From Alloascoidea hylecoeti (Eukaryota), in the NCBI GenBank assembly GCA_001600815.1, contig BCKZ01000012.1:1-64000 (forward strand): 64,000 bases of DNA. The letters run 5' to 3'. The first letter of the stretch is position 1, and every line of letters begins with the position of its first letter. Below, in pieces: positions 10,198 to 51,704 of this stretch. The position numbers and the translations under genes are program-made. The notes beneath the pieces are model-generated. The model searched no databases. It saw only the letters and a program-made list of their open reading frames with translations, and had not been told where the DNA came from.

Positions 10198-11220
10198 CTA
10201 AAAAGAAAGTTTTAATCTCCTGCAACCACCACTAGCCTTGCAAACATCTTGATGAATAGACATTTGTCTTTGAGCATCCAAAGGATCCTTAACTTCTTCT
10301 GGTTCAGGCCATGACAAATATTTATTTGTATAGTTAGATTTGAAATCTTGAGGAACAATTTCTAATCTCTTTCCATAATTAGTAACTTTTCTCCAATCAC
10401 GGTGAACATTATAACAAGATTCAGAGAAATAAGCAAATGATCTCTCAAATATTCTTTTATTCAAAACTGATGACATGCGTGGCTTTATAGCAATATACTC
10501 ATCATAGGCTTCCTTTGGTTCCTGAATGATAAAGTCGGTAGCCCTCTTAATAGCCTTCATGAATCTTGGGGCAACAGTAGGATTTGCGGCTAAAAATTTA
10601 TCATTTGCAATGTACAAAATAGTACAAAAACAACAGCATCCTAATTCAGCAAGTTTATCAATTCTCAACATTTTAGCCTCGTTAATATCACGACCTTCAG
10701 ATCTCAAAAATTCTTCAAGTTCAACTTGTTGAACACATTCAATACCGATCCCACCATCGATCTTTCCTTCTATGATATATCTAGCAACATTCATACCACA
10801 TCTAACTGCAATATAATCATCCGGAGTCATTCCGTAATGTTTGGTTAATTCATCCAATTGAATTTTACCAAACTCTCCCACGTATCCAATTCTTTTACCT
10901 TTCAATGATTGAAAATCAGTAGTGATTCCAGATCCTTCCAAGTACAGAACTCCGGTAAACGGTTCGTCCAATAGTGAGCCAATAGAGGTTACTGGATAAC
11001 CACGGGCTTTAGCAGCTAGAGTATGAATCATTGCTTTTAATCCCATGTCAACCTTTCCAGATCCAATGAGTTCAGTAACATCTGAAGGATTTCCCGGTTC
11101 CAGAATTGCAATATCTAAATTATTCTCCTTAAAATAACCACGATGTTGAGCCAAGTAAATAGGAATATGATAAGGGGTAGCTTCCCAGTTAAGAGAGAAA
11201 GTGATTTTCTTAGTTGTCAT
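10198..11220 (-). CDS. THI5: HMP-P synthase (thiamine pyrimidine synthesis, NMT1/THI5 family)
   Basis: [29 protein letters not shown] and LGCCCFC signature motifs. Confidence 0.97.
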
Positions 11221-11451
11221 AGCTAATGAATAGAAGTTTTGAAGGGTTATGAAAGTTTAAATAATTATCAAATTGATGATACTAATTTAAAATCATATTT
11301 TGGAAGAGAAAAAGGGTCTATATATATATCAGTTTTTCATGATGATGAAAAGTCATAACTCTGAATCTAATTAATGATAATTATAATCTGATTTTTAATT
11401 AACCTTGAAAATAGTTACTATATTATTAGAAGAAAGCTAAGAAATTTCAAA

Positions 11452-11792
11452 CAAAAGATGGATATTTAGTTAATTCAAAGAAGATCTTGTCAATCGTCAT
11501 ATAATTATCGGGATTCATTCTATTTTATGGATTTATGACTACTTCAACGTAGTAATATTACCTTAAACGGGGAACCCAGGGCAATTAGAGGTCATTTAAG
11601 TCGTTCATCTTGTAGTTTGATTTTCAAAAGATGGATATTTAGTTAAAAATCAAAGAAAATCTTGCCAATCGTTATATAATTACTGGGATTCATTGTGTAT
11701 TATGANTACATCTTCGTAATAGTATGACCTTNAGCGGGAATTCCNTGTCAAATAGAAGTCATTTAAATCNAGTATCTTCTAGTTTAATTCTT
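11452..11792. repeat. Diverged tandem duplication (period 173 bp) in the THI5 upstream region
   Basis: caaaagatggatatttagtta at 11452 and 11625, with collinear similarity throughout. Confidence 0.85.
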
Positions 11793-11862
11793 GGNAGATA
11801 GCTATACGTAGTACTTAGACTTCTCCGACTCAGTAAAATTACTTAAGGTATAATTTATTATC

Positions 11863-12440
11863 ATCTGAATTGGGAAATAAATCTCAGATTTGATTCCGAG
11901 TCATGCAATAATCCAATAGGATATTCAAAATGTAAAACAATATAAAAATTTATTCAAGAATTGTTCAATCGATTCATGAACCAGATAGCATACCGAGATG
12001 GATAATCAAATGTATTGCCTATGATTATAGCACTGTGGGGTCTGTCAAGATTATTATTGTAGGTTACTTTTATAATTATCGGTACTAAACACTACAAAAA
12101 GATATAGATATACATGTATTACTTTAAACGGTAATGCTAGATCAATTAAGATGTTGTTGAGTCGTGTATCTTTTAATTTGATTGTCGGAAGAAATAATGC
12201 TCCAGATCCGAACCAACTCGGTAAAAGTACTAAATGTAATTTAATGCAATGCATATATAAATTAACATTAATATCTGAATTGGGAAATAATGCTCATGAT
12301 GTGATTCTGAGTCATTCATTGAATGAATAAAAAACCAGTCAATAAGTATTCACAATTAAATCTCCAGCAACGAGTTAAAAATTCAATACTGTTCAATCGA
12401 TTTATAAACCCGAAATATAATGCTGAGATAAATAGTCATA
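11863..12440. repeat. Dispersed ~150-170 bp diverged direct repeat (11863-12010 and 12273-12440)
   Basis: atctgaattgggaaataa...gagtcat...tgttcaatcgatt is shared by both copies. Confidence 0.75.
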
Positions 12441-13750
12441 TAAGGTGTGTGCACCCTGCATGGTCTTGATGTTTTCTTGGCTGAGGGAAACACATCTCCA
12501 AAATTTATATATGTAGCGCGTAAAACTTACTCTCTTCTTAAACCATGAAAAGCATGTGTGGTCAATTCACAGAGCTTTTAATGTCAATGGAAAAGATGAT
12601 GACTCAAATGTAAGACTCAACGTATGGAGGGGCGAACGTGTAGGTTAAATGAGTTTGTGATCTGCCTACAATTGCAAACATGAAGAGGACATTCGCAAAG
12701 AAGTTAACTGGCGATTTGTAAGTACTTGGGCTCTTACCAGTACGTACATTTGAATCTAGTTTCCTAACTCCTTATAATAACATATACTTGATCCGTGTAA
12801 TATGTGCTATATTTCCACATAAATTAGGAGAGATGTCAACCTGGTAATATTTTTCATTCTATAACGCTCATATTCATTAAATTTACGTTTTTCCAACCCG
12901 AAATATAGCTCTGCATAGCGAGAGTAGCTATGAGAAATGAAATTGATCATGGCAAATTTCTTGTAACTGAGTCTTACAATTATCATTTTAATATTAATTA
13001 ATTGTAATCATAATAGGAAAAAAAAAGAGTAAAAATTACTTATAATTAGATAAATTTACGTTTGAGACCACTGGCATAATTATAGTGTTTACATAAATTA
13101 CATTACTGTCGCATCACACCTGATTTCAAATAGTATTTCCACTCTGAACTTAATATGTTAGAAGGGAGCTTAAAAGATATTGAATTAATATATATATTAA
13201 AACTCTAGCTGTTTTTTGTCCTCTTGTATGTATGTAATAGAAAAGACAACAAATATTAATTTGCCAGTAGTTATGATCCTTTAAAATTGAACAATCATCA
13301 GATATATATCGATCTAGATTCAAATCATACGTAATGTAAGCTTAAATAAAGTAACCAATTTATTAATTTTAACTAATTAAAAGATGTATAAAAATATAAA
13401 GTCAACTGAAACGCATCCTTTTACTCGTTATGGGATAAAATTATATGAAAGTGGTACATGTAAGCTTATAAGATTATATCATTTAGAAGTTAAAACTAAA
13501 GACGATGATTAATATATTAAATTACCATATATGGTGTAGTATATCATACATAATACAGTGCAAAAGTTTACAATTAGAATATTAATACAATCAGGACCAA
13601 CCAATTTCAAATTAAAACCAAGAGAAACGTTATCGTGTTTAAAATAAAGAAAATATCTGATATGAACCACAAGGTTTTAGTTAAAGCTGAGCATGATTAT
13701 TAATGATGATAATATATCATTAAGGTTGAATTGAAAATATAATAAAAGAC

Positions 13751-13951
13751 TTAGGCAATGATACAGTTGTGTGGAATATGATAATTGGGTACATATACAA
13801 CTTCTATAATGATAAATTATTGTTAGTTAGTGTATATGATTATAAAATTAATAGATTATGTCAACTTACCTGTGTGGTGGTCTTTGTCTTGAATGATTGC
13901 GGATTTCTTGTTTGAAGCTGAGAATTTGGTTTGAGAGATAGTGTTAGCCAT
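13751..13951 (-). CDS. MFA: a-factor-like lipopeptide mating pheromone precursor (2 exons, 44 aa)
   Basis: Exons 13951-13870 and 13803-13751; intron GTAAGT...ACTAAC...TAG. Product MANTISQTKFSASNKKSAIIQDKDHHTEVVYVPNYHIPHNCIIA* ends in a CAAX box. Confidence 0.85.
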
Positions 13952-14014
13952 TGTTAAGTAATAGTAAAGAGTGAATGTGAATGATATTGACAAATTGAAG
14001 GAAATTTGCCTTCC

Positions 14015-14479
14015 TTTTATAGTCAACTCTCGTCTATAACTTTGAATCAGGATGGTTTCCAATATTTCCTTATATAATTAATTATAACCCCAGAAAAGCA
14101 TAATAAACATTACAATGCCAGTACCATAGCCAGCTAGATAAAGTAATATTAAACTTTAGGATATCTCTGTTTCAACTCTTAAACTTTCGGAACCTTAACT
14201 ATTATCTACCGCATATGGTATATTTTTTAATTATATATTACATCTATATATATATATGAATTTAAATAAAACCATATATATGGTATATCTGATAATGTTA
14301 CAAAAATTCATTCTTTCAAATCTTGATAGTGAAATTGATACAAACTAGTAATAAAGTTATAAACTTCGAACTTATGGAATCGATATCAAACTTCATGAGG
14401 AGTGAGTCATGTTCTAAAGAAGGATAACCTTCAGTTATTTGTGACAACCCATTTGATTTTCAAACTGGTATGTGTTTCA
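14015..14479 (-). promoter_or_regulatory. Pheromone gene promoter: TATA, Ste12-type PREs, Mcm1-like site
   Basis: TATAAAA at 14021-14015; TGAAACA at 14174-14168 and 14479-14473; TACC-N6-GGTA at 14207-14220. Confidence 0.5.
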
Positions 14480-15603
14480 TTATTAATTATAACCATCAGT
14501 TAAGCTACCATCTCACAACTTTTATATATGCATATGTGTGTGTCAAATTTGTCAATATGCATAGATTTCAAGCAGGTCTGAAATTTTACCTTTATATTTC
14601 ACTAAATCCTACTTTCAAAGTGAACCAACCACATTTGAAACATTATAACCTATTTGGAATAGATGGAGAAGCAGAAGACCGATATCTACTTTATAGTTAG
14701 ATGTAGAGCGTGTGCCGTGCGCCGTTTAGCCGTATATGCCGTATTTCCACCGTAAATTATTTGTACAAATGAAAATTGTTTGGCAAAATATCAGCGGCTA
14801 GAAATACCAAACAAATGTGAAAAACTTGGGAAAATATGAGATCTTAACTTATTACGTATATTATCAGCAAAATTTTTCTTTTAATACTATAAACAAACGA
14901 ATGAATACTTTTAAATGTAAGGTTTTCCATCATAAAAACAATTGTACCCCATTTAATAACAATTTAAAAATGAAAGAAGGAAAAAAAAAAACAATATATT
15001 AAAAACACCTTTTCTTCATTTGTCATTTGTCTTGGATATCTATATTCAATCTAGGTCTCAAACAAATCCAAATATATATATCTATATATCAATTAAGAAC
15101 AACTTCCTTTGTACCGGCCAGTAAATTGACATGCAAATATTAACCGCTTGTATTCATTAAATAAATGAAGATAATGCGTATTTTGTTTTGTTTAAGTATG
15201 TAGTTATTATATAACTGGAAACCAAAGGTGGTTTGTTCCTTTAATTGATAGATGTTTAATCTAGAATTGAGTATAAAACATAATAAATGCTGTAAATATT
15301 GATGAACAAGAATATCTCGTAGTTGCAACTCTAGAGTAAAATTAATATAACTCGTTATGGAAATTGCAATCTAAATAAATAAAAAAAAAAAACAAATAAA
15401 AGATTAGGTACAAAGATAAAAGAGATAACAAAATGTATCTATATATAAAAAAATAATGTCTGTGTCTTTGATTTTCATAGTTGCGATTGAAAATATAATT
15501 ATGATTGATCTTGTAAAGCAATTGTATATCTATGATGGTAAGCAAATTTTTTAAGCATGTAAGGATTAATATACCGACAAACCATAATTAATCACAATAT
15601 AAA

Positions 15604-15643
15604 TTTTGTTTTGTTTTGTTTTGTTTTGTTTTGTTTTGTTTTG
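15604..15643. repeat. (TTTTG)8 microsatellite
   Basis: Direct reading. Confidence 0.9.
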
Positions 15644-16631
15644 TCATTATTTTCGTTTTTTAAAGAAAAATTGATTATTAAAGCTACCGAGATTTATCAA
15701 GTTTATCTGTTATTTTTATTCCTAATATGAAATATTTTTAATAATAACTTAAACTTTTAATCTTAATCTTTAATAATCCTTTATTTTCTGGATTTAGTGT
15801 TTCAGCATAATGAATTATAATTTTCATAGATAAATTTGTAATCAAATGAGTTAACATTTGCGAATTAGATGCAATGCAAAGCTTTATTATCATTAACATG
15901 TAATTGCGCATTATAACTAGAATTCTAAGAAGAAGAAAAAATGGTTAATTTTGTTGTTGTAATTTTTGATTTCTCTTTTGTTTCATAGAGGAAGGATACT
16001 AATTGCGATATAAAGGGGTTAACAAAGTAAAGATAAAATAAAAAAATAAAAAAATAACAACGATAATAAAAAGATAATAAAATTAAAAAATTAATTGATT
16101 ATTTTCATAGATTGAAAACCCCAAATTATAACGTAATCAATTATAAACAGAGAATCCAATAAAAAAAAGAACAAAAATATAAAAACATAAAGTTATTAAG
16201 ATAAATAAACAATAACGAAACATAAAAACAACGATGATATATATATATTTATAAATAGAAAAAGCAATAATAACAATAACAAGTAGCAAATAATTATAAC
16301 AATACATATAAAGCAATCATATTTATAATGAGATCTATAAATTTTTAAAACAGATTACAAATTAATAGATATCTTGCTATATTCTTTTTCAAATTAAATG
16401 ATATATATATCAATCAATTATTTCTGTTTCCCCATAATAAAAAAGCAAAAATAAAAAATATTAATAGTAAAAGTATAAACAGAAATAAAAATAGCGAGAA
16501 TAGCAAAAAAAAATTATAGTAAAAAAAAGTTCTGATCAATCAAAGAAATAAACTGAGTTCCTAATTACCCCAATAGAATTTTCAGTTTAAATACTTTTTA
16601 TTTGTATAATTTCAAAAGTTTTATTCTTATA

Positions 16632-19019
16632 TTAACAAGAACATAACCATTGAAACCCTCCATTATTATGATAATCATTCAGTATAACAAACCCAACAAC
16701 ACCACATATAACATATAATAAAGCAGTGAGTAATAAATGCATGAAATTCTTAATTATTAGTAAATCTCCAAACTTTTTAATATTTTCCGTCAGAAATTTC
16801 ATCTTCTGGATGTCTTTGCCAACAGTAGTATCATTTTTAATTTTAGTCTGTATTAATGAAGATCTATCCTTTAGTTTTAAATTTGATGTTGGAGATGATT
16901 CAGCTGATAAAATAGAATATGAAGTTGAAGAAGAAGAATAAGATGCATTTGAATTTGAATCATTTGAACCATTTGAACCATTTGAATTTTCACTTGGATG
17001 AAGAGGGGTTGAAAGTTCAGTATCTATTAATGGTGATGGTGATAAATGTTTCCCCCGCTTAGATCCATTAACATTAACACTAAGATTATCATTTTTATGA
17101 TCACTGCATTGTAATTTATTTTCATAATCTTGACATTTCTTTTGTAATGATGCATTTTTCTTTGAATATTCAAAAGTTATATTTTCAGCACTTTTAACTC
17201 TTTCATGATATAATTTGACATGACATTTATATTGTTCTAATTGAGTCATTAATAAACTTAAATGATTTGAATCAATTAATTCCATTCCAGCTGTTGATGA
17301 TTTCCTATTTCTTAACTTTAGATCTAAACCAGAACTAGAATCTTCTTCATTTTCATTTTCATTCTCATCATTATCTGATTTTTGTGGTTGATTAAAAGAA
17401 GAAATAATTGTTTTTCTTTTATTATTATTCAAAGATGGTAAATATTTATTCCTGTGTATTAATGATCTTGTTCTTGAATTTCTAAAATTTTTATAATTAT
17501 CATCATCATTATCATCATGATTTTGTGATATTGGTGAATCGATACTTGGTAATTCAGGTTCATTAATTGACTTACTAACAATCAATTGCTGTTCATCATC
17601 ACTTATTTCTTCAAATTCATCACTATCAGAAATTGGTTCTAAATTAGGAATAATATCTTGATCAATTTCATCATACATATAAGAAGATCTAGAAGATAAA
17701 ATTTCATTAGTAGATGAATATCTAAAAGTCTGAGTTTCTTCATCAGCAAATGGAGAATTATTATGTAATTTTAATTTTAATTTTAGTGAATTAATTTCTT
17801 CTTTATAATTTTTTTCTTTTTCAATAAATTGTTCATTTAATAAATTTATAATTTTCTTTTGTTTATTAATTAAATTTTTTGATTCTTCAAAATCAGATTG
17901 TTTATTAAATAAATTGTCATTTAATAATTCAATTTTTGAATTTTTTTTATCAATTTCAATTTTTAATAAATTTAAATTTTCTTTTAAAATCTTTTCATTT
18001 TCTAAAATTTCTTGAATTTTTAAATTTTTATTTGTTTGATTATTTTTAAATGATGTTAAAAATGTTTGTAAATTTTCAAATTTTGCATTTTCAAGTCTAG
18101 ATGAATGAATTTGGGATATTAATAGTCTTATTGTTGTTTCTAATTGGGACGAAGTACCAATTCCTGAATTCATAAATAAACCTGCAATGTTGCCCGTCGG
18201 TATACCTAGTGCTAAATCATCTAGTTGAGGATCATTTGATTGAAATACAGCGGAATCGAAAGCCTCTTTTTTCATTAATAATTTCTTGTTGTTAGCTAGA
18301 TCAGTATACGAACCGTTCGTTGTTATCGGATCTGCTTGTTGCTGTTGCTGTGGTTGTTGCTGTGGTTGGGAAAGAGGTGAAGAGGAAGGATCTGATAAAG
18401 AAATAAGATCAATAGATTCAACTCTAGCTGCTATCTTTTTGTGAGCCAAAGTTTTTTGGTCGTCATTTTTAATATCTATACCTAATTCTAAAATATCACC
18501 AGCTTTTAAAATAAAAGGATCACTTTCACAATTATCAGGACTTAACCTTTTACCATTAATATAAGTACCATTAGATGATTTACAATCTTTGATGAAAACT
18601 TGACCTGTTTGCTTGTTAACCCAGCATTCTGCATGCTGACGAGATAAGACCCGGGAATCGAAATACCCATTAGACGGATCTGGAACAGTTTGATGATTTG
18701 TCTGACGACCCAACTTCAAAACCTGGGGGAAAAAGGGTAATATAAGAGATTTGTAAGTGAAGGTATCATTTAGTGAAATTAATTTTAAAACAGTAGCGTG
18801 TTGAAGGCGAGATGGAGAGTTTGTAATGGTTGAAACTGAGGAACGTGAGTTTGCACGAGCTCGAGGGCGACCAGCACCAGCAGGGGCAGCGACGCCACCC
18901 CCAACGTTAGCAGTAGCCACTGGGCCTGAATTTTGCTGCTGTGAGTTCATGGACGGGAGGGACGGGAGGGCGAAAGATTCTACAGCTGTGCCTGAGTAAT
19001 GTTGGTTTTGTGCGAGCAT
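16632..19019 (-). CDS. VPS64: FHA-domain, coiled-coil, tail-anchored STRIPAK/Far complex subunit (Far9/Vps64-Far10, SLMAP-like)
   Basis: LKLGRQ..NGYFDSRVLSRQHA..IKDCKSSNGTYING FHA domain, a coiled coil and a C-terminal TM segment. First ATG at 19019. Confidence 0.85.
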   Translation of the reverse strand: MLAQNQHYSGTAVESFALPSLPSMNSQQQNSGPVATANVGGGVAAPAGAGRPRARANSRSSVSTITNSPSRLQHATVLKLISLNDTFTYKSLILPFFPQVLKLGRQTNHQTVPDPSNGYFDSRVLSRQHAECWVNKQTGQVFIKDCKSSNGTYINGKRLSPDNCESDPFILKAGDILELGIDIKNDDQKTLAHKKIAARVESIDLISLSDPSSSPLSQPQQQPQQQQQADPITTNGSYTDLANNKKLLMKKEAFDSAVFQSNDPQLDDLALGIPTGNIAGLFMNSGIGTSSQLETTIRLLISQIHSSRLENAKFENLQTFLTSFKNNQTNKNLKIQEILENEKILKENLNLLKIEIDKKNSKIELLNDNLFNKQSDFEESKNLINKQKKIINLLNEQFIEKEKNYKEEINSLKLKLKLHNNSPFADEETQTFRYSSTNEILSSRSSYMYDEIDQDIIPNLEPISDSDEFEEISDDEQQLIVSKSINEPELPSIDSPISQNHDDNDDDNYKNFRNSRTRSLIHRNKYLPSLNNNKRKTIISSFNQPQKSDNDENENENEEDSSSGLDLKLRNRKSSTAGMELIDSNHLSLLMTQLEQYKCHVKLYHERVKSAENITFEYSKKNASLQKKCQDYENKLQCSDHKNDNLSVNVNGSKRGKHLSPSPLIDTELSTPLHPSENSNGSNGSNDSNSNASYSSSSTSYSILSAESSPTSNLKLKDRSSLIQTKIKNDTTVGKDIQKMKFLTENIKKFGDLLIIKNFMHLLLTALLYVICGVVGFVILNDYHNNGGFQWLCSC

Positions 19020-30736: not shown

Positions 30737-33700
30737 ATGGCTATTGGTGTACAACTGCGGAAGTTGAAATTTAACCAACAAATTGTACCATCTCCCGGTC
30801 GTTCCATTTCTACAAAAGAACTATTGAACAGATTTAAGATTCTACAAGATGAATTAGCCTCATTACCACAAGAAGAAGTTGATCTTGATACTATTAGAAA
30901 AATTGCAAAAGATTTAACTCATAAGAATATTCTTCATAATAAAGATATTGGTATTAAAGCATATGCTGCTTGTTGTTTAGCTGATATCTTAAGAATCTTT
31001 GCACCAGACGCGCCATATACTGGTCATAAATTAACTGAAATTTTTAATTTTTTCTTTGAACAATTAAAACATGTTTCAATTAATTCAGAATCAAATTATA
31101 CTTATTTTAATCAATTATTTTATTTATTAAGATCTTTATCTGAAGTAAGAAGTATTGTTTTAGTAACTGATTTACCTCATTCTGATGAATTAATTAAATC
31201 AATTTTTGATAAATTATATGAAGCTGCAAATAAAGGTATTCCAAAACAACTAGAACCTTTATGTGCTGATATATTATCTGCAATTATTGAAGAGTCTGAA
31301 GAAATTCCATCTGAAATATTAAAAAAAATCCTCTTTTATTTCTTAAAAGGTGAAAAACATTCAAATATAAATTCAAATATTACACAATCTAATGGTAATG
31401 GTAATGGAAATGGTAAATCAGGTTCAGTAACACAACAAATGAATGTTAGATATACAGGTTATAATTTTTCAACTATTATTTGTGATCAAAATGCTGATAG
31501 AATGACACGACAAATAACTCAATATTTCTCTGAAACTTTATTTGAAAATACTCAAATTGAAAAAGATGGTTTTGATATTGAAAAATCAAAAAAAAATTTA
31601 TCAACAATACATAGATTAGCAATTGAAATATGGAGAGCTGTTCCTGAATTATTAACTTCTGTAATGGGTTTATTAAATGATGAATTGACAACTGAAGATT
31701 CAATGATTAGAATTTTAGCAACTGATACCGTTGGTGCAATTTTAGGAATTTCTCCATCAAGGGTTGATTTTGTTTCTCAACATCATGATACCTGGAATAA
31801 TTGGATGAATAGAATATCTGACAAATCTCCATTGGTAAGAGAAAGATGGACTATGAAATCTTGTACCGTTCTTGCCAATAGAGTTGATGTTATTAAAGAA
31901 GTTTCTAATGGTTTAACCAAATGTTTAATCGATACTGATAGAAAAGTTAGATTGGCTGCTTGTAAAACAGTTTCATTATTATTATCTGAACATTTATTAC
32001 TTACAAAAATCAGAAATAAAACATTACTTGAAACTTTAGGTAGTTTAACAAGAGAACGTGATCCAACTATTAGAAATACAGTTATTGATATACTGGGACA
32101 ATTGTATAATGAAATTTTTAAAGATTTATATTCTGGTAATGATGATGAACTTGATTCATTAGTTGGTTGGATACCAACAAATATTTTACAACTTATTTAT
32201 GTTAATGATAAACAAATTAATTTTAAAATGGATAAAGTTTTATTTGAACAAATTTTACCATTTGAAATTAATAATGAAATTCGTGTTAATAGATTATTAA
32301 CTGTTATAAAAAATATCAATGATTCAAAATCAAAAACTTCATTTTTATCAATTGGTAAAAGACAACAACAATTATCATCATTTTTAGAACAATTTATAAC
32401 ATTATGTGAAAATTACAATTCTGGTTCACCAATTGATGATAAAGAAACTACTACATCAATTGAACAAAAATTAAATAAAGCTAAAAAGTGGTTTTCTGCT
32501 TTATTTCCTGATGATATGGATGTTGAAAGATTATTAACAGAATTTATTAATAAAAATGATAAAAGATGGTATACATTAATCAAAATTTGTATTAATCCTG
32601 AAGCTGATTATGAAACAATTAGAAGATCAATTGTTGAATTATTAAATAAAACTGGTTTATACAATAAAGATCTTCAATCATTTATAAAAATATTAATGTA
32701 TCGATCAAGTCTTATTCTATATAATAAAAGTAATATTCCTGAATTGGTTAAAATTTCAAGAAATTTAAATCATCCTTTACATTCAACATCGCATGAATTA
32801 GTTACAGAAATATCAAATGTTACACCAAGTTTATTTAAAAGTCATATTTCTGAATTAATTGAAGTTATTAAAACAAATAATCCAGGGTTTGATGGTTCAT
32901 GTCATACATTAAAAACAATTTTACAATTTACAAGAAAATTTTTAGATTTAGTACCAAGTGATAAATTATATTTTGAATCATTAAAAAATTTTGCAACAAA
33001 TGGATCACCAGAAGAAGCAAAATTATCAATTAAAATTCTTTCATTTTCAAAAAATAAAGAAATGTATTATCAACAAATCTTAAAAGATATATTACCATTA
33101 AATAAAAAAAATCCAAAATTTGTTACTTATATTTCTGCTTTAGCTTCATTATATATATCATTACCTGAAATAATTGGTATAAAAGAAAATGAAGAAATAA
33201 CTGCATATCTTATTAANAATGTTCTTTTAAAAAATGATACTCAAATAGATGAAGAAAATGATCAATTATGGTTGAATGATGATGAAATTAANACAGAAAC
33301 TNTAGCNAAAATTTATGTTTTAAAATNATTTGTTAATCGTTTAAAAATTTATGAAGAATCTTCTGAAGATGCAACACAACAAGCTGATCCTGTTTTTAAA
33401 ATTTTAATTTCATTAATTGGACATGGTGGTGAGATATCAACAACTAAAAATGGTTTAACTCCTTCATACACAAGATCAAGATTAAGGCTACAGGCAGGAT
33501 TATTATTACTCAAATTAGCAAAGTCCCCATTATACCATTCTATGATTACTGCAAATCACATTAATCGGCTTATTTTTATTGTTCAAGATGAATGTTTACA
33601 GGTTCGAACACAATTTGTGGATACACTAAAACGATATATAAATTTGGAAGTTATTTCAGATAGATTCTTACCATTAGTATTTTTCATTGCACATGAACCA

Positions 33701-36419: not shown

Positions 36420-38675
36420 TTAAAATAAAAATATCATTCCAATAATACTAGCGATCCAAAGAGTAAATCTACTTTCATATTTAGAAGCTCCGCTACCCAA
36501 ATCAACCGTGCTTACAGTAGCGACACCAGAAGTAGCGGCTGTGGAAGTAATAGCAGTAAAGGCTTCTCCGGATAAATCAGTATGTACGGAAGTCGATGTT
36601 TGTGTTGCAGATTGGACCACCTCAATTGTAGCACTCTCACGTACTTCAGTTGTTCCTGTAGAGCAAGCGTTGCCGGAACAGCTAGCAATACCATATGAAG
36701 TAGTAGAATAAACAATTTCACTTCCAGACGATGTTGATGTGACTTCAACAACTGTTGGTTTTACGGAAACAATAGAACTTCCTGAAATCTTAGCATATGG
36801 AAGATAGGTGGAATAAACTGAGGTTACAGCTTCTCCGGATATAGTCGATGTAGTAGTAACATCAGAAGCTGTCAACAAGTAAGATCCAGAAACAGGAACT
36901 TCTGAAGTAACTGCTGTAACAATCGTTTTACTTCCAACTTTGGTAGTTTTTGATAAGACAACAGAGCTAATTGTAGCTGATTCGGTGACTGTACTAGCAA
37001 CATATGAAGTAGATTGCACTATAATTGTACTACCAGAAGATGTAGATGTTACTTCAACAACTGTAGGCTGAACAGAAATTGTGCTGCTTCCAGAGACCTT
37101 TGCATATGGACAATAAGTAGTATAAACAGTGACAAAGGTTTCACCTGATACCGTTGCAGTACTAGTAACATCAGAAGCTGTCAACAAGTAAGATCCAGAA
37201 ACAGGAACTTCTGAAGTAACTGCTGTAACAATCGTTTTACTTCCAACTTTGGTAGTTTTTGATAAGACAACAGAGCTAATTGTAGCTGATTCGGTGACTG
37301 TACTAGCAACATATGAAGTAGATTGCACTATAATTGTACTACCAGAAGATGTAGATGTTACTTCAACAACTGTAGGCTGAACAGAAATTGTGCTGCTTCC
37401 AGAGACCTTTGCATATGGACAATAAGTAGTATAAACAGTGACAAAGGTTTCACCTGATACCGTTGCAGTACTAGTAACATCAGAAGCTGTCAATAAGTAA
37501 GATCCAGAAACAGGAACATCTGAAGTCAGTAGAGTGGTATAAGTACTATTACCAACTTCAGTTACCTTTGAAACGACAACAGAACTCAATGAAACAGAAG
37601 AAGTTTGAGCTACAGCTTCAACACTGGTTTTAACGTAAGTTGAGCTGATAACAGAACAAGCATTTGTAGTAGCAATAGATTCACTTCCTGAAATCGTTGT
37701 TGTATAAGTAATATCACCACATACACTTGAGGAGGAAACAATTGTTGTAACGATAGAAGTTTTACTTTCAGTAGCCAGACCAGTAGGAACTGTAGAAGTT
37801 TTAACATAAGTTGAGCTGACAATAGAACAAGCATTTGTAGTAGCAATAGATTCACTTCCTGAAATCGTTGTTGTATAAGTAATATCACCACATACACTTG
37901 ATGAGGATACAATTGTAGTTTCACTTTCAGCAGCTAGGCTAGTAGGAACTTTAGAAGAACTTGAACCAGATGCAGATGTGGTGAAAGATGCTGAAGTAAT
38001 AAAACTTTCAGAACCAGATGATTTGATGATAGTTGAAGAGGAAATGATTTCTTCCGATGAGCTAACAGCCTCAGTAGATGTTTGAGGAACTGCTTCTTCT
38101 GATGAGCTGACAGCTTCAGCAGATGTTTGAGGAACCGATCCCACTGACGAACTTGATTCAACTAGGGTTATACTTGAGGAGCTAGATTCCGACCAACACC
38201 AAGTAGGACTAGATGCACCACTATCACATCCTGTTCTATAGTCTCCGCTATTAAAGTAATTATTTGACCAGTCATATTGATAATTAATCTGGGAACCACA
38301 AATTAGACCATCAGAGTTAGTAGTAGTACTTGAATCTGTAACTGTATAGCTGTAAGAGAATGGATTTTGATCACTATTAGTTATTCCAACATTGTTATTA
38401 GAGTAGAAGATTTTAGTCTCGGGAGCCGTAATTTTGTATTCCCAAACATTCGATAATGTAGCGCTACCAGTATTTGACAAAGTAAAAGAATAAGTCAAAT
38501 CATATGAGCCATCAGAATTCTTTTCAACGTTTGTCAAAGTGATACTACCTGTAGGCTGGCTTGAGCTTGCGCTTGAAGAGTCAAGAGTACATGATGCCTC
38601 AATTGAGTAATCTGCTAGAACAGTTGAAACATAAAACGAAATAAAAAAAAGATAATAACGAATGGAACTCAGCAT
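36420..38675 (-). CDS. GPI-anchored Ser/Thr-rich adhesin with Flo11-type N-terminal domain
   Basis: Signal peptide, WEYKI..FYSNN..C..QYDW..GCD domain, TTYCP repeats and a hydrophobic GPI signal. Confidence 0.85.
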   Translation of the reverse strand: MLSSIRYYLFFISFYVSTVLADYSIEASCTLDSSSASSSQPTGSITLTNVEKNSDGSYDLTYSFTLSNTGSATLSNVWEYKITAPETKIFYSNNNVGITNSDQNPFSYSYTVTDSSTTTNSDGLICGSQINYQYDWSNNYFNSGDYRTGCDSGASSPTWCWSESSSSSITLVESSSSVGSVPQTSAEAVSSSEEAVPQTSTEAVSSSEEIISSSTIIKSSGSESFITSASFTTSASGSSSSKVPTSLAAESETTIVSSSSVCGDITYTTTISGSESIATTNACSIVSSTYVKTSTVPTGLATESKTSIVTTIVSSSSVCGDITYTTTISGSESIATTNACSVISSTYVKTSVEAVAQTSSVSLSSVVVSKVTEVGNSTYTTLLTSDVPVSGSYLLTASDVTSTATVSGETFVTVYTTYCPYAKVSGSSTISVQPTVVEVTSTSSGSTIIVQSTSYVASTVTESATISSVVLSKTTKVGSKTIVTAVTSEVPVSGSYLLTASDVTSTATVSGETFVTVYTTYCPYAKVSGSSTISVQPTVVEVTSTSSGSTIIVQSTSYVASTVTESATISSVVLSKTTKVGSKTIVTAVTSEVPVSGSYLLTASDVTTTSTISGEAVTSVYSTYLPYAKISGSSIVSVKPTVVEVTSTSSGSEIVYSTTSYGIASCSGNACSTGTTEVRESATIEVVQSATQTSTSVHTDLSGEAFTAITSTAATSGVATVSTVDLGSGASKYESRFTLWIASIIGMIFLF
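36690..37930 (-). repeat. Adhesin intragenic repeats: 309-bp units and 171-bp units
   Basis: agtaacatcagaagctgtcaa at 36855, 37164 and 37473; aatatcaccacatacacttga at 37710 and 37881. Confidence 0.92.
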
Positions 38676-41179: not shown

Positions 41180-44100
41180 TTAGTTATTCCTATGGAGTAA
41201 TCCTCCAACAAAAGACTTTCTGTGATCATGATTCTTATTTCTAAAAAACTTATACTTACCTTCAACAATGTATCTAATACCAAGTTGAATTAAGTAAAGC
41301 GATGATCCAATTGCTCTGAAAGCAGCAAGAACAGCTACACTCCACAAGATAAACTTCAAATAAACATTGCTAGAGGTACTGTAAGGCTCGTATATTTGAG
41401 TGATGATCATAACTAAGAGCATGTTTGCAATCAACCAACCTAGCACGACTCTTGTTCTAATATCTCTATAGTAATCTTCAGCACTCTGCTCAGTAGATTC
41501 TTCTGGTTTAGCGGTATTTGCTCTCCTATCTCTCAAATTACATAAGACTTCCTCATAACCACTATCGATATCAAGTTGTTCTGATGGTATCTCAACTTCA
41601 ACAATATCCTTCCCTAAATGATTTTTAACAATGGCAGAACCAAGATTGGCTTTCGGATCATTGTCACCTTTAGTACCCCATGAAACATCATGTGTATTAC
41701 AAAAAGCGTAAATTTGTAAAGTACAAACATAAAATGGAATCAACATGAAATATTGAGGAGCACAAGTAAAAATATGCCAAGGATCCATATACAAGAAGGA
41801 CATGATGATATAAATACCATATGTTGAAAGCATTGATATAACAATATTTGTGAATACGTTATCTCCTAGTTCAGAACCATTGCCTTTTTGTTTCAAAGTT
41901 TTGATGACAAAGTAGAATCCAACACAAGTAGCATATAAGAATACAATAACTAGAATAATCATAGTAGTAACAAATAAATGTTTCGCACCCTGAGGCCGAT
42001 TACCCATTGATATTATAAAAATCGAAGCCAAGTCACAGAGCAGTAAGTACTTTGCGATAGTAAACAGCCAGAAGCCACCCCTATGCGGAATAACATTGTC
42101 ATCGTCACCACTAATGCTACCAGCAATAAAGTAAAATGTCAAATAAAAGTTACCTAAAGAGAAAACAGAGAAAAGAAGTTGAATGAATTGATAAAAGAAC
42201 TCAATGTTTAGAAATATTTTCCTAGCATATGAATGGTCAGTTTTCCATATTTTTCCACAATTCATCAAAGAATAAACAGCAGCAAAAAGAGCACCATTAA
42301 GCCATCTCCTTCTTTGACTAATAAATTCAGGAATTGAATCGGGAACATCTGTTTCACCAGTAGCATTTCTAACATATTTTAGAACCCATTTTTCTTTCTT
42401 TTTGGAAATTAACTCCCAACATAAGATACGATCTTCGGCAAGATACATATTTGCAGTGAATACTGTAGTGTCGGGGCCTTCAAGTTTTTCTCCTCTAAAG
42501 TAAGCTTCCAAGGGTCCAGTACCATCCTCATGATTAGTCAATGCCCTATATCTATATGCTGATAAAGCACCTGGCAAAACACTAATATACCCAAACACAC
42601 TTTCCAAAGGTTTATCAAGAATATTTGACATTTTATATTCAAAATTTTGGGTTGCAACTAATGGGTTTAATAAATATTTCCAATTTTTTCCTTTGATAGC
42701 TTTGATTTCACCACACGCACCGGCGACGTTTGAATCATTATCGAAGGCCTTCCATAAATTATACATTGCGGCATGATCAGGTTTAGTACCAACATCCAAC
42801 AAAATACAAACATTAGGGTTTAAAGGAGGGCAAAGACCATTAAATAGCCATCTGTGGGAGTTAATTTTTTTAGCGTTCTTTTCTTTTAAACAAAATAAAA
42901 CTTGAACTGGAACCAAACCTTTTTCTGCCCCTTCAAATTTCAATTCTTCATTTATTGAAACTTGTGTTGTATATTCAAACAAATGGGCTTGTACTTCTTT
43001 TGAATTGACAAAACTCTTAGCGATACCATCCTGATAAATACCCATTGCAGCTAAAACTTCCAAAACACCAGGTGCAATTTTAGCACGACCATCAGAAACA
43101 ATAACAACTTGAACTTTCTTCCAACCATCTTTACCCCAAACACGACTTTTATTTCTTGAAACCAGATAAGCTACATTTTTCATGACACCATGCATCGTTC
43201 TTGCAAAAGATCTCTCGTCTTCATTATACATGGTAATACAAATACATAGTTGAATCTCTCTTTCATAAATTGCTGAACGTAAAGTAAAACCATTTTGACT
43301 AAAATCATCGGCATCACAAGTAACAGCAGTATATCTCATATATAAGAATTCATCATCATCACGACGTGGAAGAAAACTAGATAATTTTGTGGGGACAGGA
43401 CAATCTAAAATAAGGTTCCCATGTACCAGCTTAACCTGTTTTCTTGACATGGATTTATGTCTTCTTGGTTGCGCATTCTTTGGAGCGGCATGTACTCGTT
43501 TATCTAAAGTCTGATTTATAGAAGATCCCGAAGAGCTTTCGTTAATCTGAAGATTTGGTATTTTTTCGCCTATATTACCTTCTTCATATTCATAACCATA
43601 TTCATCCCCATTATAAAGGTTATTGTTCTGTAAAGTTTCGAGAGTACTAAATCGTTCATCTTTGTAAACAGTCGATGTACTACCGGTCATCCTAGATTCC
43701 GATGCATCTGGATTCCAATATATATTTTCATCGTCTTCATGCGAAGGAGGGAAAATGTCTGAGTTGAAGGCAGGTTGTGGGTGCTGGAGCATCTCAATGT
43801 CGTTGGGCGAACCGGATCTTAAAGGCGATCCGGAAAGATAATCTTGTTGAGGAGGTAATTGTGGTATTCCATTACTAAACCCTGAAGTGTCAATATTATC
43901 ACGATAATCGTCGATAGTGATAGAACTATTTCTATCATGTTTCGGTGATTCTAATCTCATCCATTCAGCTTTTGGTGTGGTATTTAAATTAGTACTGAAA
44001 CGTCCTGGCGAAGAGTTTCTCTCCGGCGAATATGCACTTCTATCCCCAAATGCCACCCTAGGGGATCTTCGTAAAGCACTTGAAGTGTTGTATTCATCGG

Positions 44101-44318
44101 ATTCTATATATCGAATACAAATTGTTAGTGGAAACAAAAGAGGTAAGAATGAAAGAAATAAACAGTCACATACCATCCGCGAAGGGCATAGGATGATATC
44201 TTGTTGGAGATCCGGGGGTTGAAGCCACAGCATCGGGGTGAGATAGCAAAGGAGTTGAGTATGGACGTTTTCTTCGTCTGCTATCGAAGAGAGAGTCTTC
44301 AAAAGGATTTTTACTCAT
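41180..44318 (-). CDS. CHS2: Chitin synthase, class II (2 exons)
   Basis: Exon 1 MSKNPFED..., intron 44173-44104. TMYNED, LAEDRIL and QRRRW motifs. Confidence 0.9.
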
Positions 44319-46526: not shown

Positions 46527-47925
46527 CTATTCTTCGTTTTCCAACCAATCGCCAAACTTTTCAGCCCGGCTTCCACTATTTTCGTCCTTTTTCTTCCTGT
46601 ATTTCACAACTCCATCATAAAGAGATGCCTCAAGTGTTCTTCCTCCGAAGAATCTCCCATTCATTTTCTAAATTCCAAATATCAATTAGCCTTAAGCTTT
46701 AAAAGCTTCTGAAATCAGAATATGTTCAAATAACGTACCTGAATGCATTTAATTGCCTCTTCTTTAGTCGAAAACCTCACACTTACAACTCCTTCTGATT
46801 CCAAATCAAATAAGACCGTATTTTTGACTTCTCCAATTTCATTACATCCTGTCCTTATATCCTCTTCAATATCGTTTGCTGCATTTTCATCGTTCTATTA
46901 GAGGTTAGTAAAAATCAATCTTTTTTCCTTCCAAATGTTAACTCAATTGATGCGTACCTCAAGTTCATCAAGGGTAAACACATGCTTTAGTATGACAACT
47001 TTATCCCATCGTTTGTAGAGATCTTTTTCTTTTTCTTTCTTTATTGCAACATCATCATCATCATCCCAGTCTTCAAGTTTGCTATTTAAATTAATATAGT
47101 TAGTGACACTTAGTTTTGAAACTGCCGATCAACAGGTAAAACATACTTATGTAATTTTTGAAACCGTTTTTGGATTGCTTTCTTCTCTTTTAAAGACCTT
47201 TCTGGAATCACATCCTTTTTATATTCGCCTCCGTTTTCAGTCTGTTTATGCGAGAAGTCAGCTTTCTGGACTTTTATCTTTACTGGATTTTTTGTATCTT
47301 CTATTCGTAAAGTACTATCATCAAGCATTTCAATCGCTAAATGCACGCTTTCTTCTCTAAAATACACCACAAGCGCGTCTCCTTTAAAATTATTTGTTTT
47401 TTTATCTCTATAAAGCCGAATTTTCTTTTTACCGGTTATCAGATCTTCTGCAATAACGCCATATTTAGAGAACACATCTTCCAATTCTTCCTCTGTTGTA
47501 TCAATGGGTAAATTCGATACATAAACAGCAGTATTCCTTATCGGTTTCTTCTGCTTTTCATTTGTCATTTTCTTAGATTTCTTCTTATCTTCTTGAGATG
47601 TATTTTCTTCATTATGATTAGGTTTTCTCCTTTTATTTCTTTTTCTTTCCTCTTTTATCCTTTCCCAATCTTCTTCTGTAAGATCCTCAACCTCTTCCCC
47701 TTCATTTAGATACGCTTTCCTTTGTAGTTTTATAGCTTGCTCATTCAAAATTGGGATCCATTGTTTTGCAACTGTATTAAATTCATATTCCAACCCCGTT
47801 TCTTCATCTTCAATGATGTATCTTCCGGTATTGTTATCAAGTGCTACACGAGGATCTTTTATGAACTCTAAATGATCAGTAGATAGAGAAGATAAAAAGT
47901 TTGCTTCATTATTAGAAGATGTCAT
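46527..47925 (-). CDS. CUS2: U2 snRNP-associated RRM/UHM protein (Tat-SF1) (4 exons)
   Basis: NTAVYVSNLP..FKGDALVVY; introns 47146-47082, 46957-46895 and 46738-46668; MNGRFFGGR. Confidence 0.92.
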
Positions 47926-49079: not shown

Positions 49080-51704
49080 CTAAGAATGTTTTACAAGGTT
49101 AGCAATTTTCAAACGTTCAGTCCCATCTTTAGCACCCTTCTCTCCGCAGACCTTCTTAGAAAGATCATCCTCTATATACCACGAGCGCCTCTTATCATCA
49201 TCATCATCATCATCATCATCGTCATCATCATTATCATCACCGTCATCATCTATATCCATGTCATCATCAAAGTTGTCTGATGAGGCTTTTTCTTTACCTT
49301 TGGAGCCGCTGGTGGTCCTTTGATCAGATGTATCCATAACACTGACTGAATTATTACTTGCAATAACAGTATCTGATTTACTTGAACTTGATTCACTAAC
49401 ACTATTACGTTCAGGATTTTGCACGATTTTCGAAATGGCTTTTTCTAATTTTCCTGATTTAATTACCTGAGAAAAGTAATTTAACTTATTAGCTTTGTCT
49501 CCACAATATTTTAGCCTTTGAGAATCCATAAATATGACGGATTGATTTTGTGACCAATTGCACTTTTTCATAATCTCCCTTGTTTTGTCGATGATCACCT
49601 TTCTTCTTCGATAAAACACTCTTATATCACCACTATTACGCCATTTATTCTTATAGCGGTTATCTAGATATGTAATTGAAAGCCGTGTACCGTCAGGAAA
49701 TGCTGCATAACCTTCAAACCATTCATACCACAGTTCTGCAACACTATAAATGTCACGTCTCATTCTATATAAAGGAGGGTCAAGGGGATCTTTGGGAAAG
49801 TCAAAAGATTGAATTGGTGTATTGGAAGATGTGGAGTGTGATGAAGTATGTATAAGATTAGATGTTACAACTGTCGCCTTCTCAAGTTTATCCATCATTT
49901 TCGTGAGATTGTTTAAAGAGACGGTTAATAATGAATCACGGGTATTCATCCGCTTAATATTTCGGTTAAATTGTGATTTGAAAGAAACCATTTCCGATTT
50001 AAACTCGTTAAGTTTACTTATAGTCTGCCTATTTTGGATTGCCATTGAGGTCTGAAGGTTAGAAACCTGCGATTGAAGTTCTTTGTTATTTAGTATGAGT
50101 TCATATAGTTGGTCCTCGACATCCGGCCGTGCAAGTATTGATAGTATATCTTGAGGATCATCAGGAATAAGACATTCTTCCAGAGATCTCCCAAAATCGT
50201 TAAATCGCCTACACCTAAAAATTGGGTGGGTGAAAATAATATTGTCGGGAAACATTTTTTTCAGTATAACAGCATCTTGTAAAATACAGATTCTAAGATA
50301 TTTGCAAAGTTTCAAGAATGAATCAGAGGCTACAAAAGATGAAGAAGGATTGTCGGCCATCTCCTCCTCCATTTCTTCGATCTCGGGCCAAATTTCCATT
50401 TGTAACTCCACTGGAGGAACCAATCCGGCACGGCAGATATTATAATTATGGTTTGTTGTCGGATCAAACCCTGACATTGCCTTAAGCCATTCCAATGGCA
50501 TTAGTTTGCGATATTCATTTTCAATTCCATTCAATTCCCAAATCCCCGATTCTTTAACTTGCGCACCTGTAAAATCTTTCAGTTCAATTACCTTAGCTTT
50601 TATTGAAGGTGAAAAATAACTCGGGAAGGAGGGAGTTTTATTAAACGAGTTTTCAACACTTGTAAGCCAATAGGCCTGGGTTGTGTAATCTAATGTGCCA
50701 TCTTCATTGCTTCCTTTTAGGAGAGGTAAAGTGAGCCACTCTGGACTATTCACTTTAGGAAATGGTTCCTTATCTAATGTGAACCTCACAAAAAAATAAA
50801 AGGCAAGCTTGGAAACAGGGCATAATCGTACATCTTTGTTCCTTACCATTGCTCCCAACTCAGTTCTTCCGTACCCGTCAGGTTTTTCTTTTTGAACCAA
50901 AAGGCATACTGCCTTTGCCTCAGAAGAGCCCTGATCACCAAGATCTACTATTGCTAAATCAGATAATTGAGCAGCACGCCTCTTTCGACCATCTAACAAC
51001 ATATAATGGCGTAATATAAAATCTAGAGAAGTTCTGTAGTTTTCTTGAAAATGGAATTCTACCCTCCAAGGTTTTTCAGCAAAATGCAAAAATTCACTTT
51101 CTTGAGAACCCAATAAAATTGTTGATAGTCTCTTACCAGTGTACCGTTTTTTATTGTAAATCATTTGATTTCGCTTTACTGTTTCGATTAAAGACATTAA
51201 GCCTGGGCCCTTTGGATCTTTGATACCCTCTTGGTAAGCTTTTTGTCGGTTATAAAGAGAATCCAGGCAAGTAACAATTGAGGCAACAGTAACGTATTTG
51301 GGATGTTTTGGTATTATCTCCTCCTGTAAATAGGCAACTATTTTTCTCTCGGATACCAGGTAATCGAAACCTTTTTTGTCGCAGTAAGAGTAATAAGATT
51401 TTAGCTTATCGTCGAAAGAGAACACCGACGGAGCTTTCAGAGGCTCCGCTGGATTTCTTGTCATCCATAATGAGTGTTTCGTCCTCATCCCTAAGTGCGT
51501 TCCAAATGTCTCGTTGCATGTGAGTCGTTCAAACTGAAAATCGGGTGAAATGCCATCTGTGATCGGTAGGGTAGTTAGTGCACCTCTCTCTAAAGCCAAG
51601 TTCTCTGGATCTGGAAGGGGTTCAGCTAGGTTACTTAGATTCTCTGATATCTCTAGAAATTTATCTGGAACATATTCTTTATTTTTATAGATAATAGGTT
51701 CCAT
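49080..51704 (-). CDS. Crypton-derived protein: Ndc10-type tyrosine-recombinase-like domain plus Gcr1 C-terminal DNA-binding domain
   Basis: AQLSDL..GAMVRNKDVRLCPVSKLAFYFFVRF..LKAMSGF..PPVELQMEIWP..YLRICILQDAVIL...YRMRRDIYSVAELWYEWFEG..LDNRYKNKWR..FYRRRKVII. First ATG at 51704. Confidence 0.85.
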   Translation of the reverse strand: MEPIIYKNKEYVPDKFLEISENLSNLAEPLPDPENLALERGALTTLPITDGISPDFQFERLTCNETFGTHLGMRTKHSLWMTRNPAEPLKAPSVFSFDDKLKSYYSYCDKKGFDYLVSERKIVAYLQEEIIPKHPKYVTVASIVTCLDSLYNRQKAYQEGIKDPKGPGLMSLIETVKRNQMIYNKKRYTGKRLSTILLGSQESEFLHFAEKPWRVEFHFQENYRTSLDFILRHYMLLDGRKRRAAQLSDLAIVDLGDQGSSEAKAVCLLVQKEKPDGYGRTELGAMVRNKDVRLCPVSKLAFYFFVRFTLDKEPFPKVNSPEWLTLPLLKGSNEDGTLDYTTQAYWLTSVENSFNKTPSFPSYFSPSIKAKVIELKDFTGAQVKESGIWELNGIENEYRKLMPLEWLKAMSGFDPTTNHNYNICRAGLVPPVELQMEIWPEIEEMEEEMADNPSSSFVASDSFLKLCKYLRICILQDAVILKKMFPDNIIFTHPIFRCRRFNDFGRSLEECLIPDDPQDILSILARPDVEDQLYELILNNKELQSQVSNLQTSMAIQNRQTISKLNEFKSEMVSFKSQFNRNIKRMNTRDSLLTVSLNNLTKMMDKLEKATVVTSNLIHTSSHSTSSNTPIQSFDFPKDPLDPPLYRMRRDIYSVAELWYEWFEGYAAFPDGTRLSITYLDNRYKNKWRNSGDIRVFYRRRKVIIDKTREIMKKCNWSQNQSVIFMDSQRLKYCGDKANKLNYFSQVIKSGKLEKAISKIVQNPERNSVSESSSSKSDTVIASNNSVSVMDTSDQRTTSGSKGKEKASSDNFDDDMDIDDDGDDNDDDDDDDDDDDDKRRSWYIEDDLSKKVCGEKGAKDGTERLKIANLVKHS

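Follow-up and report, generated by a model that had tools for sequence, protein, structure and literature searches.

A candidate intron-split gene for a farnesylated mating pheromone in an intron-rich budding yeast

A putative intron-split 44-codon frame between a THI5-like and an FHA-domain gene

The 64-kb stretch of DNA analysed here (in the following called the window) has a G+C content of 31.7% and, apart from the locus described below, the appearance of an ordinary yeast chromosome. Two Pfam scans gave matches in 4 of 8 and in 14 of 16 long ORFs, with families that include PDS5, class I/II chitin synthase, beta-tubulin, Rcd1, DnaJ, a Flo11 domain and the combination of NDC10_II and GCR1_C. 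The Flo11 adhesin domain lies at the N-terminus of a 751-aa ORF (36420-38675, minus strand), while NDC10_II (domain 2 of a centromere CBF3 subunit) and GCR1_C are joined in an 874-aa ORF (49080-51704, minus strand). No tRNA gene was found in the 64-kb window. Ten isolated single N bases, ambiguous or masked in the record, fall into two groups of five (11706-11795 and 33217-33327), the second of which lies within the PDS5 ORF.

The locus of interest occupies a gap between two genes that were assigned by Pfam scan:

10198-11220: THI5/NMT1-like gene, one flank of the gap
16632-19019: FHA-domain gene, other flank of the gap

The initial annotation had described this gap as poor in ORFs, and this is borne out: between the THI5-like and the FHA-domain ORFs (11220-16632) the longest ATG-initiated ORFs have 66 and 76 aa, and the longest frame from stop to stop has 90 aa. 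Judged by eye, the stop-to-stop frames resemble low-complexity translations of AT-rich DNA. A search for Rfam families in 11000-17000 gave no match. The candidate gene thus stands alone in a 5.4-kb stretch without any other plausible gene. It is a two-exon ORF on the minus strand (13951-13751) that, translated from the window sequence after splicing, comprises 44 codons and ends in Cys-Ile-Ile-Ala-stop. Its parts are as follows:

13870-13951, minus strand: exon 1, with the start codon at 13951-13949, 27 codons and the first base of codon 28; 40% G+C
13804-13869, minus strand: intron of 66 nt in phase 1, with donor CAG|GTAAGT and acceptor TAG; 18% G+C
13751-13803, minus strand: exon 2, with bases 2 and 3 of codon 28, codons 29 to 44 and the stop codon TAA at 13753-13751
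13786-13781, minus strand: Asn34-Tyr35, the predicted cut site within exon 2
13783-13763, minus strand: Tyr35-Cys41, the mature peptide predicted by the Asn-X rule (10.1101/2021.09.28.462209)
13765-13754, minus strand: CaaX box Cys-Ile-Ile-Ala, directly before the stop codon TAA

The intron-split ORF had been proposed in the initial annotation, and the details given there are correct, from the exact 13870/13803 junction and the 66-nt intron with GTAAGT, ACTAAC and TAG to the 44 codons that end in CIIA-stop. The branch motif ACTAAC occurs twice in overlapping copies, starting at 13831 and 13827 (span 13831-13822), and the acceptor TAG is the first AG past the branch site, at a distance of 18-22 nt. 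If the intron is retained, the same frame ends after 31 codons at an in-frame stop within the intron, so that the unspliced transcript indeed stops ahead of the CaaX exon, as had been stated. Between a TATAAAAG box upstream and the start codon at 13951 there is no other ATG; the start codon has an A at position -3, and codon 2 is GCT. As judged from the translation, the pro-region encoded by exon 1 is rich in Ser, Thr, Lys, Asp, Asn and Gln and contains no hydrophobic or signal-peptide-like stretch. We also considered a larger multi-exon gene that includes both exons and rejected it: exon 2 ends in TAA without a consensus donor ahead of it, and no protein-like frame follows.

Upstream of the start codon, the following motifs were identified:

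14014-14021, minus strand: TATAAAAG (TATA) box, 63-70 nt upstream of the ATG
14168-14174, minus strand: TGAAACA, proximal copy, ~220 nt upstream of the ATG
14473-14479, minus strand: TGAAACA, second copy, ~525 nt upstream of the ATG
14636-14642, plus strand (opposite orientation): TGAAACA, third copy, ~690 nt upstream of the ATG
14149-14190, minus strand: CCNAAAGTTTAA in two exact copies at a spacing of 30 nt, which flank the proximal TGAAACA on both sides

The TATAAAAG box is one of eight occurrences in the window, four on each strand. TGAAACA corresponds to the consensus of the Ste12-type pheromone response element, which we assume to hold in this distant lineage as well. Across the window its frequency is as expected (23 observed, 21.2 expected); within 700 bp upstream of the ATG there are three copies against 0.25 expected (Poisson P ~0.002, in a test chosen post hoc). 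Two clusters of three TGAAACA per 700 bp exist in the window. The other one, at 41681-42356, lies inside the chitin-synthase ORF and is probably coincidental. The 12-mer CCNAAAGTTTAA is present in two copies against 0.14 expected, a number reached in 1 of 100 shuffles, and has no further exact copy in the window. Its pair around the proximal TGAAACA may serve a lineage-specific regulator as a binding site. A single CATTGT motif (HMG-type site) at 14112 was discarded as promoter evidence, with 36 copies of it in the window.

The intron in the context of its host genome and of chance

The window comes from a budding yeast of an isolated lineage, with AT-rich DNA, many introns and the standard genetic code. 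The THI5-like protein is 75-77% identical to its homologs in many budding yeasts, with one match at 96%. For the less conserved PDS5, the best named matches, from Lipomyces, Wickerhamomyces, Dipodascopsis and Komagataella, reach only 37-39%, which suggests that this budding yeast stands in an isolated lineage. Together, the THI5-like and PDS5 genes carry four CTG codons, three of which occupy columns dominated by Leu (in 59 of 59, 52 of 59 and 21 of 24 aligned homologs), from which we conclude that the standard code is in use. The N-terminus that contains the fourth aligns poorly. No CTG codon occurs in the candidate gene itself.

The richness in introns became evident from the beta-tubulin gene, whose 5′ part we rebuilt (57726-56089, minus strand). 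Removal of five introns of 52, 69, 59, 59 and 58 nt yields a continuous ORF of 446 codons. All of these very short introns fall within the first ~70 codons, with a micro-exon of 14 nt (57557-57544) among them, and such a gene marks its host as a budding yeast rich in introns. The N-terminus restored in this way appears tubulin-like, and the Pfam match supports the 3′ exon only. The donors are GTAAGC, GTATGT and GTAATT, and the branch motifs ACTAAC, CCTAAC and TCTGAC, or none that matched; GTAAGC and GTAATT as well as CCTAAC and TCTGAC deviate from the strict yeast consensus. A strict scan of the window yielded eight full-consensus donors, at three of which (47146, 44173 and 30236) introns of 65-70 nt can be delineated. 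Two of them would extend the frames of long ORFs:

44104-44173, minus strand: candidate intron of 70 nt, whose splicing would place 49 further codons ahead of the chitin-synthase frame
47082-47146, minus strand: candidate intron of 65 nt, whose splicing carries the frame of an RRM protein beyond the end of its 271-aa ORF

A further RRM-like frame downstream suggests a second intron in the RRM-protein gene.

Given the 52-69 nt of the beta-tubulin introns and the 65-70 nt of the three candidates, an intron of 66 nt is typical here, and in an intron-rich genome an intron in a pheromone gene is unremarkable. The initial annotation had suggested that splicing could gate the production of the pheromone. 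We found no support for this suggestion. In a genome full of introns, this one is short like the others and carries strong consensus signals, and intron-containing genes of this type are known in S. pombe and Y. lipolytica. We consider it very unlikely that conditional splicing, depending on mating type, starvation or pheromone, switches the output of the pheromone, with a product, a farnesylated heptapeptide, below the length of all characterised fungal lipopeptide pheromones.

Base composition follows the proposed exon-intron structure, with 40% G+C in exon 1, 18% in the intron and 27% in the surrounding gap. Codon use was also compared. Among codons of two-fold families ending in a pyrimidine, those ending in C make up 9 of 14 in the candidate gene (7 of 7 in exon 1 alone) and 454 of 2486 (18%) in the 23 long ORFs of the window, a difference with a post hoc P of ~2e-4. 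The share of C-ending codons over the six frames of the gap is 25%. No such preference is seen in two putatively well-expressed genes, those for tubulin (7%) and the THI5-like protein (24%), and what appears as a codon signal in the candidate may be no more than local composition.

Could intron-like signals in AT-rich intergenic DNA have joined, by chance, two short frames that happen to end in a CaaX motif, with no gene at the locus at all? As a null, a third-order Markov model of the window was used to produce 12.8 Mb of sequence, corresponding to 100 windows, which we searched for GTA[AT]GT, ACTAAC within 200 nt of the donor and the first YAG, allowing introns of up to ~260 nt and spliced ATG-ORFs of 25-60 aa. 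Intron-like triples alone are common, with 107 in these 100 window equivalents or about one per window, and this keeps the chance explanation alive. They led to 32 spliced ATG-ORFs of 25-60 aa, none of which (0 of 32) ended in CaaX. Among the 8833 stops of the window itself, 6 are preceded by a strict and 76 by a relaxed CaaX motif, from which ~2e-4 chance cases are expected per 64-kb window for strict and ~3e-3 for relaxed CaaX, or ~0.04 strict cases per 12-Mb genome. The joint event is thus rare. The genome does, however, use looser splice signals (GTAAGC and GTAATT as donors, CCTAAC and TCTGAC as branch sites), which offers more ways to find an intron than the strict null allowed; by our own rough estimate, accepting them would give roughly ten-fold more chances. 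For comparison, we estimate that a real intron-split copy would be present in any given 64-kb window with a prior probability of ~1e-3, assuming one to a few genes per genome and, in an intron-rich lineage, an intron in perhaps a tenth to a third of them.

For a chance origin, the TATA box, the cluster of three TGAAACA copies, a first ATG with A at -3, the contrast in G+C between exon and intron and the Asn-Tyr site would all have to be coincidences as well. Apart from the G+C contrast, every one of these adds weight to the reading as a real gene, and we regard a chance assembly as unlikely.

Predicted maturation and comparison with known pheromone genes

For CaaX peptides ending in Ala, farnesylation, loss of the last three residues and methylation of the C-terminus are established, and it is the terminal Ala that directs the addition of a farnesyl and not of a geranylgeranyl group. 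The features of the locus suggest the following path for its product. Transcription would be driven by the TATA-containing promoter with its Ste12-type sites, of which the motifs are observed and their use is proposed. The 66-nt intron would be removed constitutively, joining the 27 codons of the pro-region to the pheromone exon. As its C-terminal motif implies, the 44-residue cytosolic precursor would be farnesylated on Cys41, trimmed of its last three residues and methylated at the new C-terminus. Its N-terminal extension would then be removed, with the final cut most likely after Asn34, which gives a predicted mature peptide of seven residues, Tyr35-Cys41. As an alternative, a longer mature form may begin near residue 28. 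The lipopeptide would be secreted by an ABC exporter of the Ste6 type and sensed by a Ste3-type receptor on cells of the opposite type.

The predicted cut after Asn34 follows from the one systematic sieve for farnesylated pheromones of budding yeasts, which combines a short ORF, CaaX-stop and an Asn-X site, the last defined as Asn followed by an aromatic or uncharged residue with 5-20 residues left to the Cys (10.1101/2021.09.28.462209). All three are present in the candidate: a short ORF, CaaX directly before the stop, and Asn34-Tyr35 with seven residues from Tyr35 to Cys41. With 44 codons and a single pheromone copy, the precursor also lies inside the range of roughly 30-45 residues of this class. 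The initial annotation had placed a mature peptide of 14 residues here, where the Asn-Tyr rule indicates the seven residues Tyr35-Cys41. A search for this 7-residue string in the literature available gave no match.

The annotation had moreover called the locus an a-factor-like pheromone gene. In favour of this stand the short ORF, the CaaX box, the Asn-X site, the promoter motifs and the fitting intron, and it is from these that we infer the pheromone function. Taken together, they make it likely that the locus is a functional two-exon gene for the precursor of a farnesylated, carboxymethylated pheromone of the a-factor/M-factor type. For a budding yeast, little is gained by the further statement that such a gene implies a sexual cycle.

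A spliced micro-gene with a prenylated product other than a pheromone, for instance a small membrane-anchored regulatory peptide, is a reading we judge most improbable. It draws on the fact that function is assigned here from motifs alone, and on a length of 44 residues and a possible 7-residue product that are outside the characterised ranges. The Asn-aromatic site and the Ste12-type sites, in contrast, are specific expectations for pheromone genes, and besides the mating pheromones, no class of fungal CaaX peptides with ~40 residues is known to us.

Among the known systems, the plan of the putative pheromone gene matches the M-factors of S. pombe and S. octosporus especially well. The genes mfm1-3 of S. 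pombe and So-mfm1-6 of S. octosporus likewise encode short precursors with one pheromone copy directly before the CaaX box and contain introns. The M-factors YTPKVPYMC and YQPKPPAMC are farnesylated and methylated peptides of nine residues (PMC6342294). Both start with Tyr and contain Pro, and the predicted Tyr35-Cys41 likewise has a Tyr start and an internal Pro. There is, however, no detectable sequence homology to these M-factors, whose hosts belong to the Taphrinomycotina and not, like ours, to the budding yeasts, and the nine residues and three to six redundant copies of the M-factor genes contrast with seven predicted residues and the one copy seen in the window.

Within the budding yeasts, a close parallel in gene structure is YlMFA4 of Yarrowia lipolytica, an a-factor gene described as having its ORF split by one intron with the canonical signals of that species, for which reason it was missed by the ORF-based search (10.1101/2021.09.28.462209). 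YlMFA4 was revealed by its intron-less paralogs and confirmed by a quadruple deletion, whereas the present candidate was recognised from its sequence.

S. cerevisiae MFA1 and MFA2 and C. albicans MFA1 share with the candidate the common plan of a hydrophilic N-terminal extension, a single mature peptide and a CaaX box and mature in the cytosol with a final cut C-terminal to Asn, as is predicted here. They differ from it in several respects. The mature a-factor of S. cerevisiae is given as 12 residues and the predicted mature peptide of C. albicans MFA1 as 14 residues (AVRSVSTGNCCSTC; PMC7151012), compared with seven predicted for the candidate. No intron is mentioned for these genes in the text consulted, and they were recovered by an algorithm that uses ORFs only, whereas the candidate is split by an intron. 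Their mature part has no sequence similarity to that of the candidate. The Saccharomycetaceae precursors are reported to have 32-38 residues (PMC3161974), so that the candidate, with 44, is longer.

A product of seven residues would be below the characterised forms of nine and 12 residues and the predicted form of 14 residues; cleavage at the Asn-Tyr pair, should it occur, would carry the lower limit of pheromone size in this class to seven residues. The initial annotation had called the mature peptide unfamiliar. As MFA genes are described as short, highly divergent and mobile (PMC3161974), an unfamiliar mature sequence is what one would expect.

Intron-containing lipopeptide pheromone genes are already known from fission yeast and Yarrowia, and the candidate adds an example from an isolated lineage, leaving the understanding of farnesylated pheromone systems unchanged. 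Its value lies in the search for such genes. Farnesylated pheromone genes are too short and too divergent for homology searches, and copies with introns are invisible to the systematic finder for budding yeasts. According to published accounts, intron-carrying pheromone genes escape both annotation and this ORF-based finder, which left many budding-yeast species without a candidate (10.1101/2021.09.28.462209). An intron-split candidate in an isolated, intron-rich yeast lineage shows the need for intron-aware searches.

Searches for transcripts, relatives and further copies, and a second strain

No RNA run on record contains the stretch. We compared four runs, two of DNA (X3 and X4) and two in the form of metatranscriptome contigs (X7 and X8), and no splice joint was found in any of them. 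The X8 contigs contained nothing matching. In X7, a match of 35 nt with five mismatches within the AT-rich intron was treated as spurious.

Searching for relatives of the precursor, we compared the 31-residue unspliced ORF, which lacks the CaaX exon, by phmmer with 1.84 billion representative sequences and obtained no match. A degenerate pattern of the last seven pheromone residues followed by C-a-a-X-stop matched no stretch in metagenome contigs; this contig collection seems to lack even the present species. We further used the THI5-like gene as an anchor for a synteny search, which yielded 19 loci (22-82% identity) from other yeasts or more distant organisms, with no close relative and no comparable ORF among them. 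Three short ORFs ending in CaaX in these loci were rejected, as none was hydrophilic or similar to the candidate.

The 64-kb window contains no paralog of the candidate gene, and in Pfam scans of the window we found no gene for Ste3, Ste6, farnesyltransferase, Ste14, Ste24/Rce1 or Axl1/Ste23. Lipopeptide pheromone genes usually exist in several copies with rapid turnover of copy number (PMC3161974; 10.1101/2021.09.28.462209). Together with their movement within genomes and the one copy seen here, this would suit a disused copy, that is, a decaying or silent pheromone-type gene with working copies elsewhere in the genome. Against this, the ATG context, donor, branch site, acceptor, CaaX box and TATA box are all intact and near consensus, and all of them are kept in a second strain. 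We therefore consider a disused copy very unlikely, and a functional pheromone gene remains the preferred reading.

The second strain is represented by X4, a DNA run from a wood-decay metagenome, which differs from the window by four substitutions and two indels in 1201 nt. Within the gene, the sole change is at 13939 and causes a conservative replacement, Ile5Val, in the pro-region. The two strains agree throughout the intron, with its splice signals, and throughout the pheromone exon. With only four substitutions in 1201 nt, this support carries little weight. Natural variation in S. pombe is described as lying in prosequences and introns and not in the mature part (PMC6342294). The change confined to the pro-region in the X4 strain echoes this pattern of the M-factor genes, with little weight given the few differences here.

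The two indels of the X4 strain, a 4-nt insertion and a 2-nt deletion (14299 and 14326), lie near a TA-rich stretch at 14223-14269 and represent simple-sequence variation between strains. Several X4 contigs begin or end within this TA-rich stretch, beyond which their sequence is unrelated.
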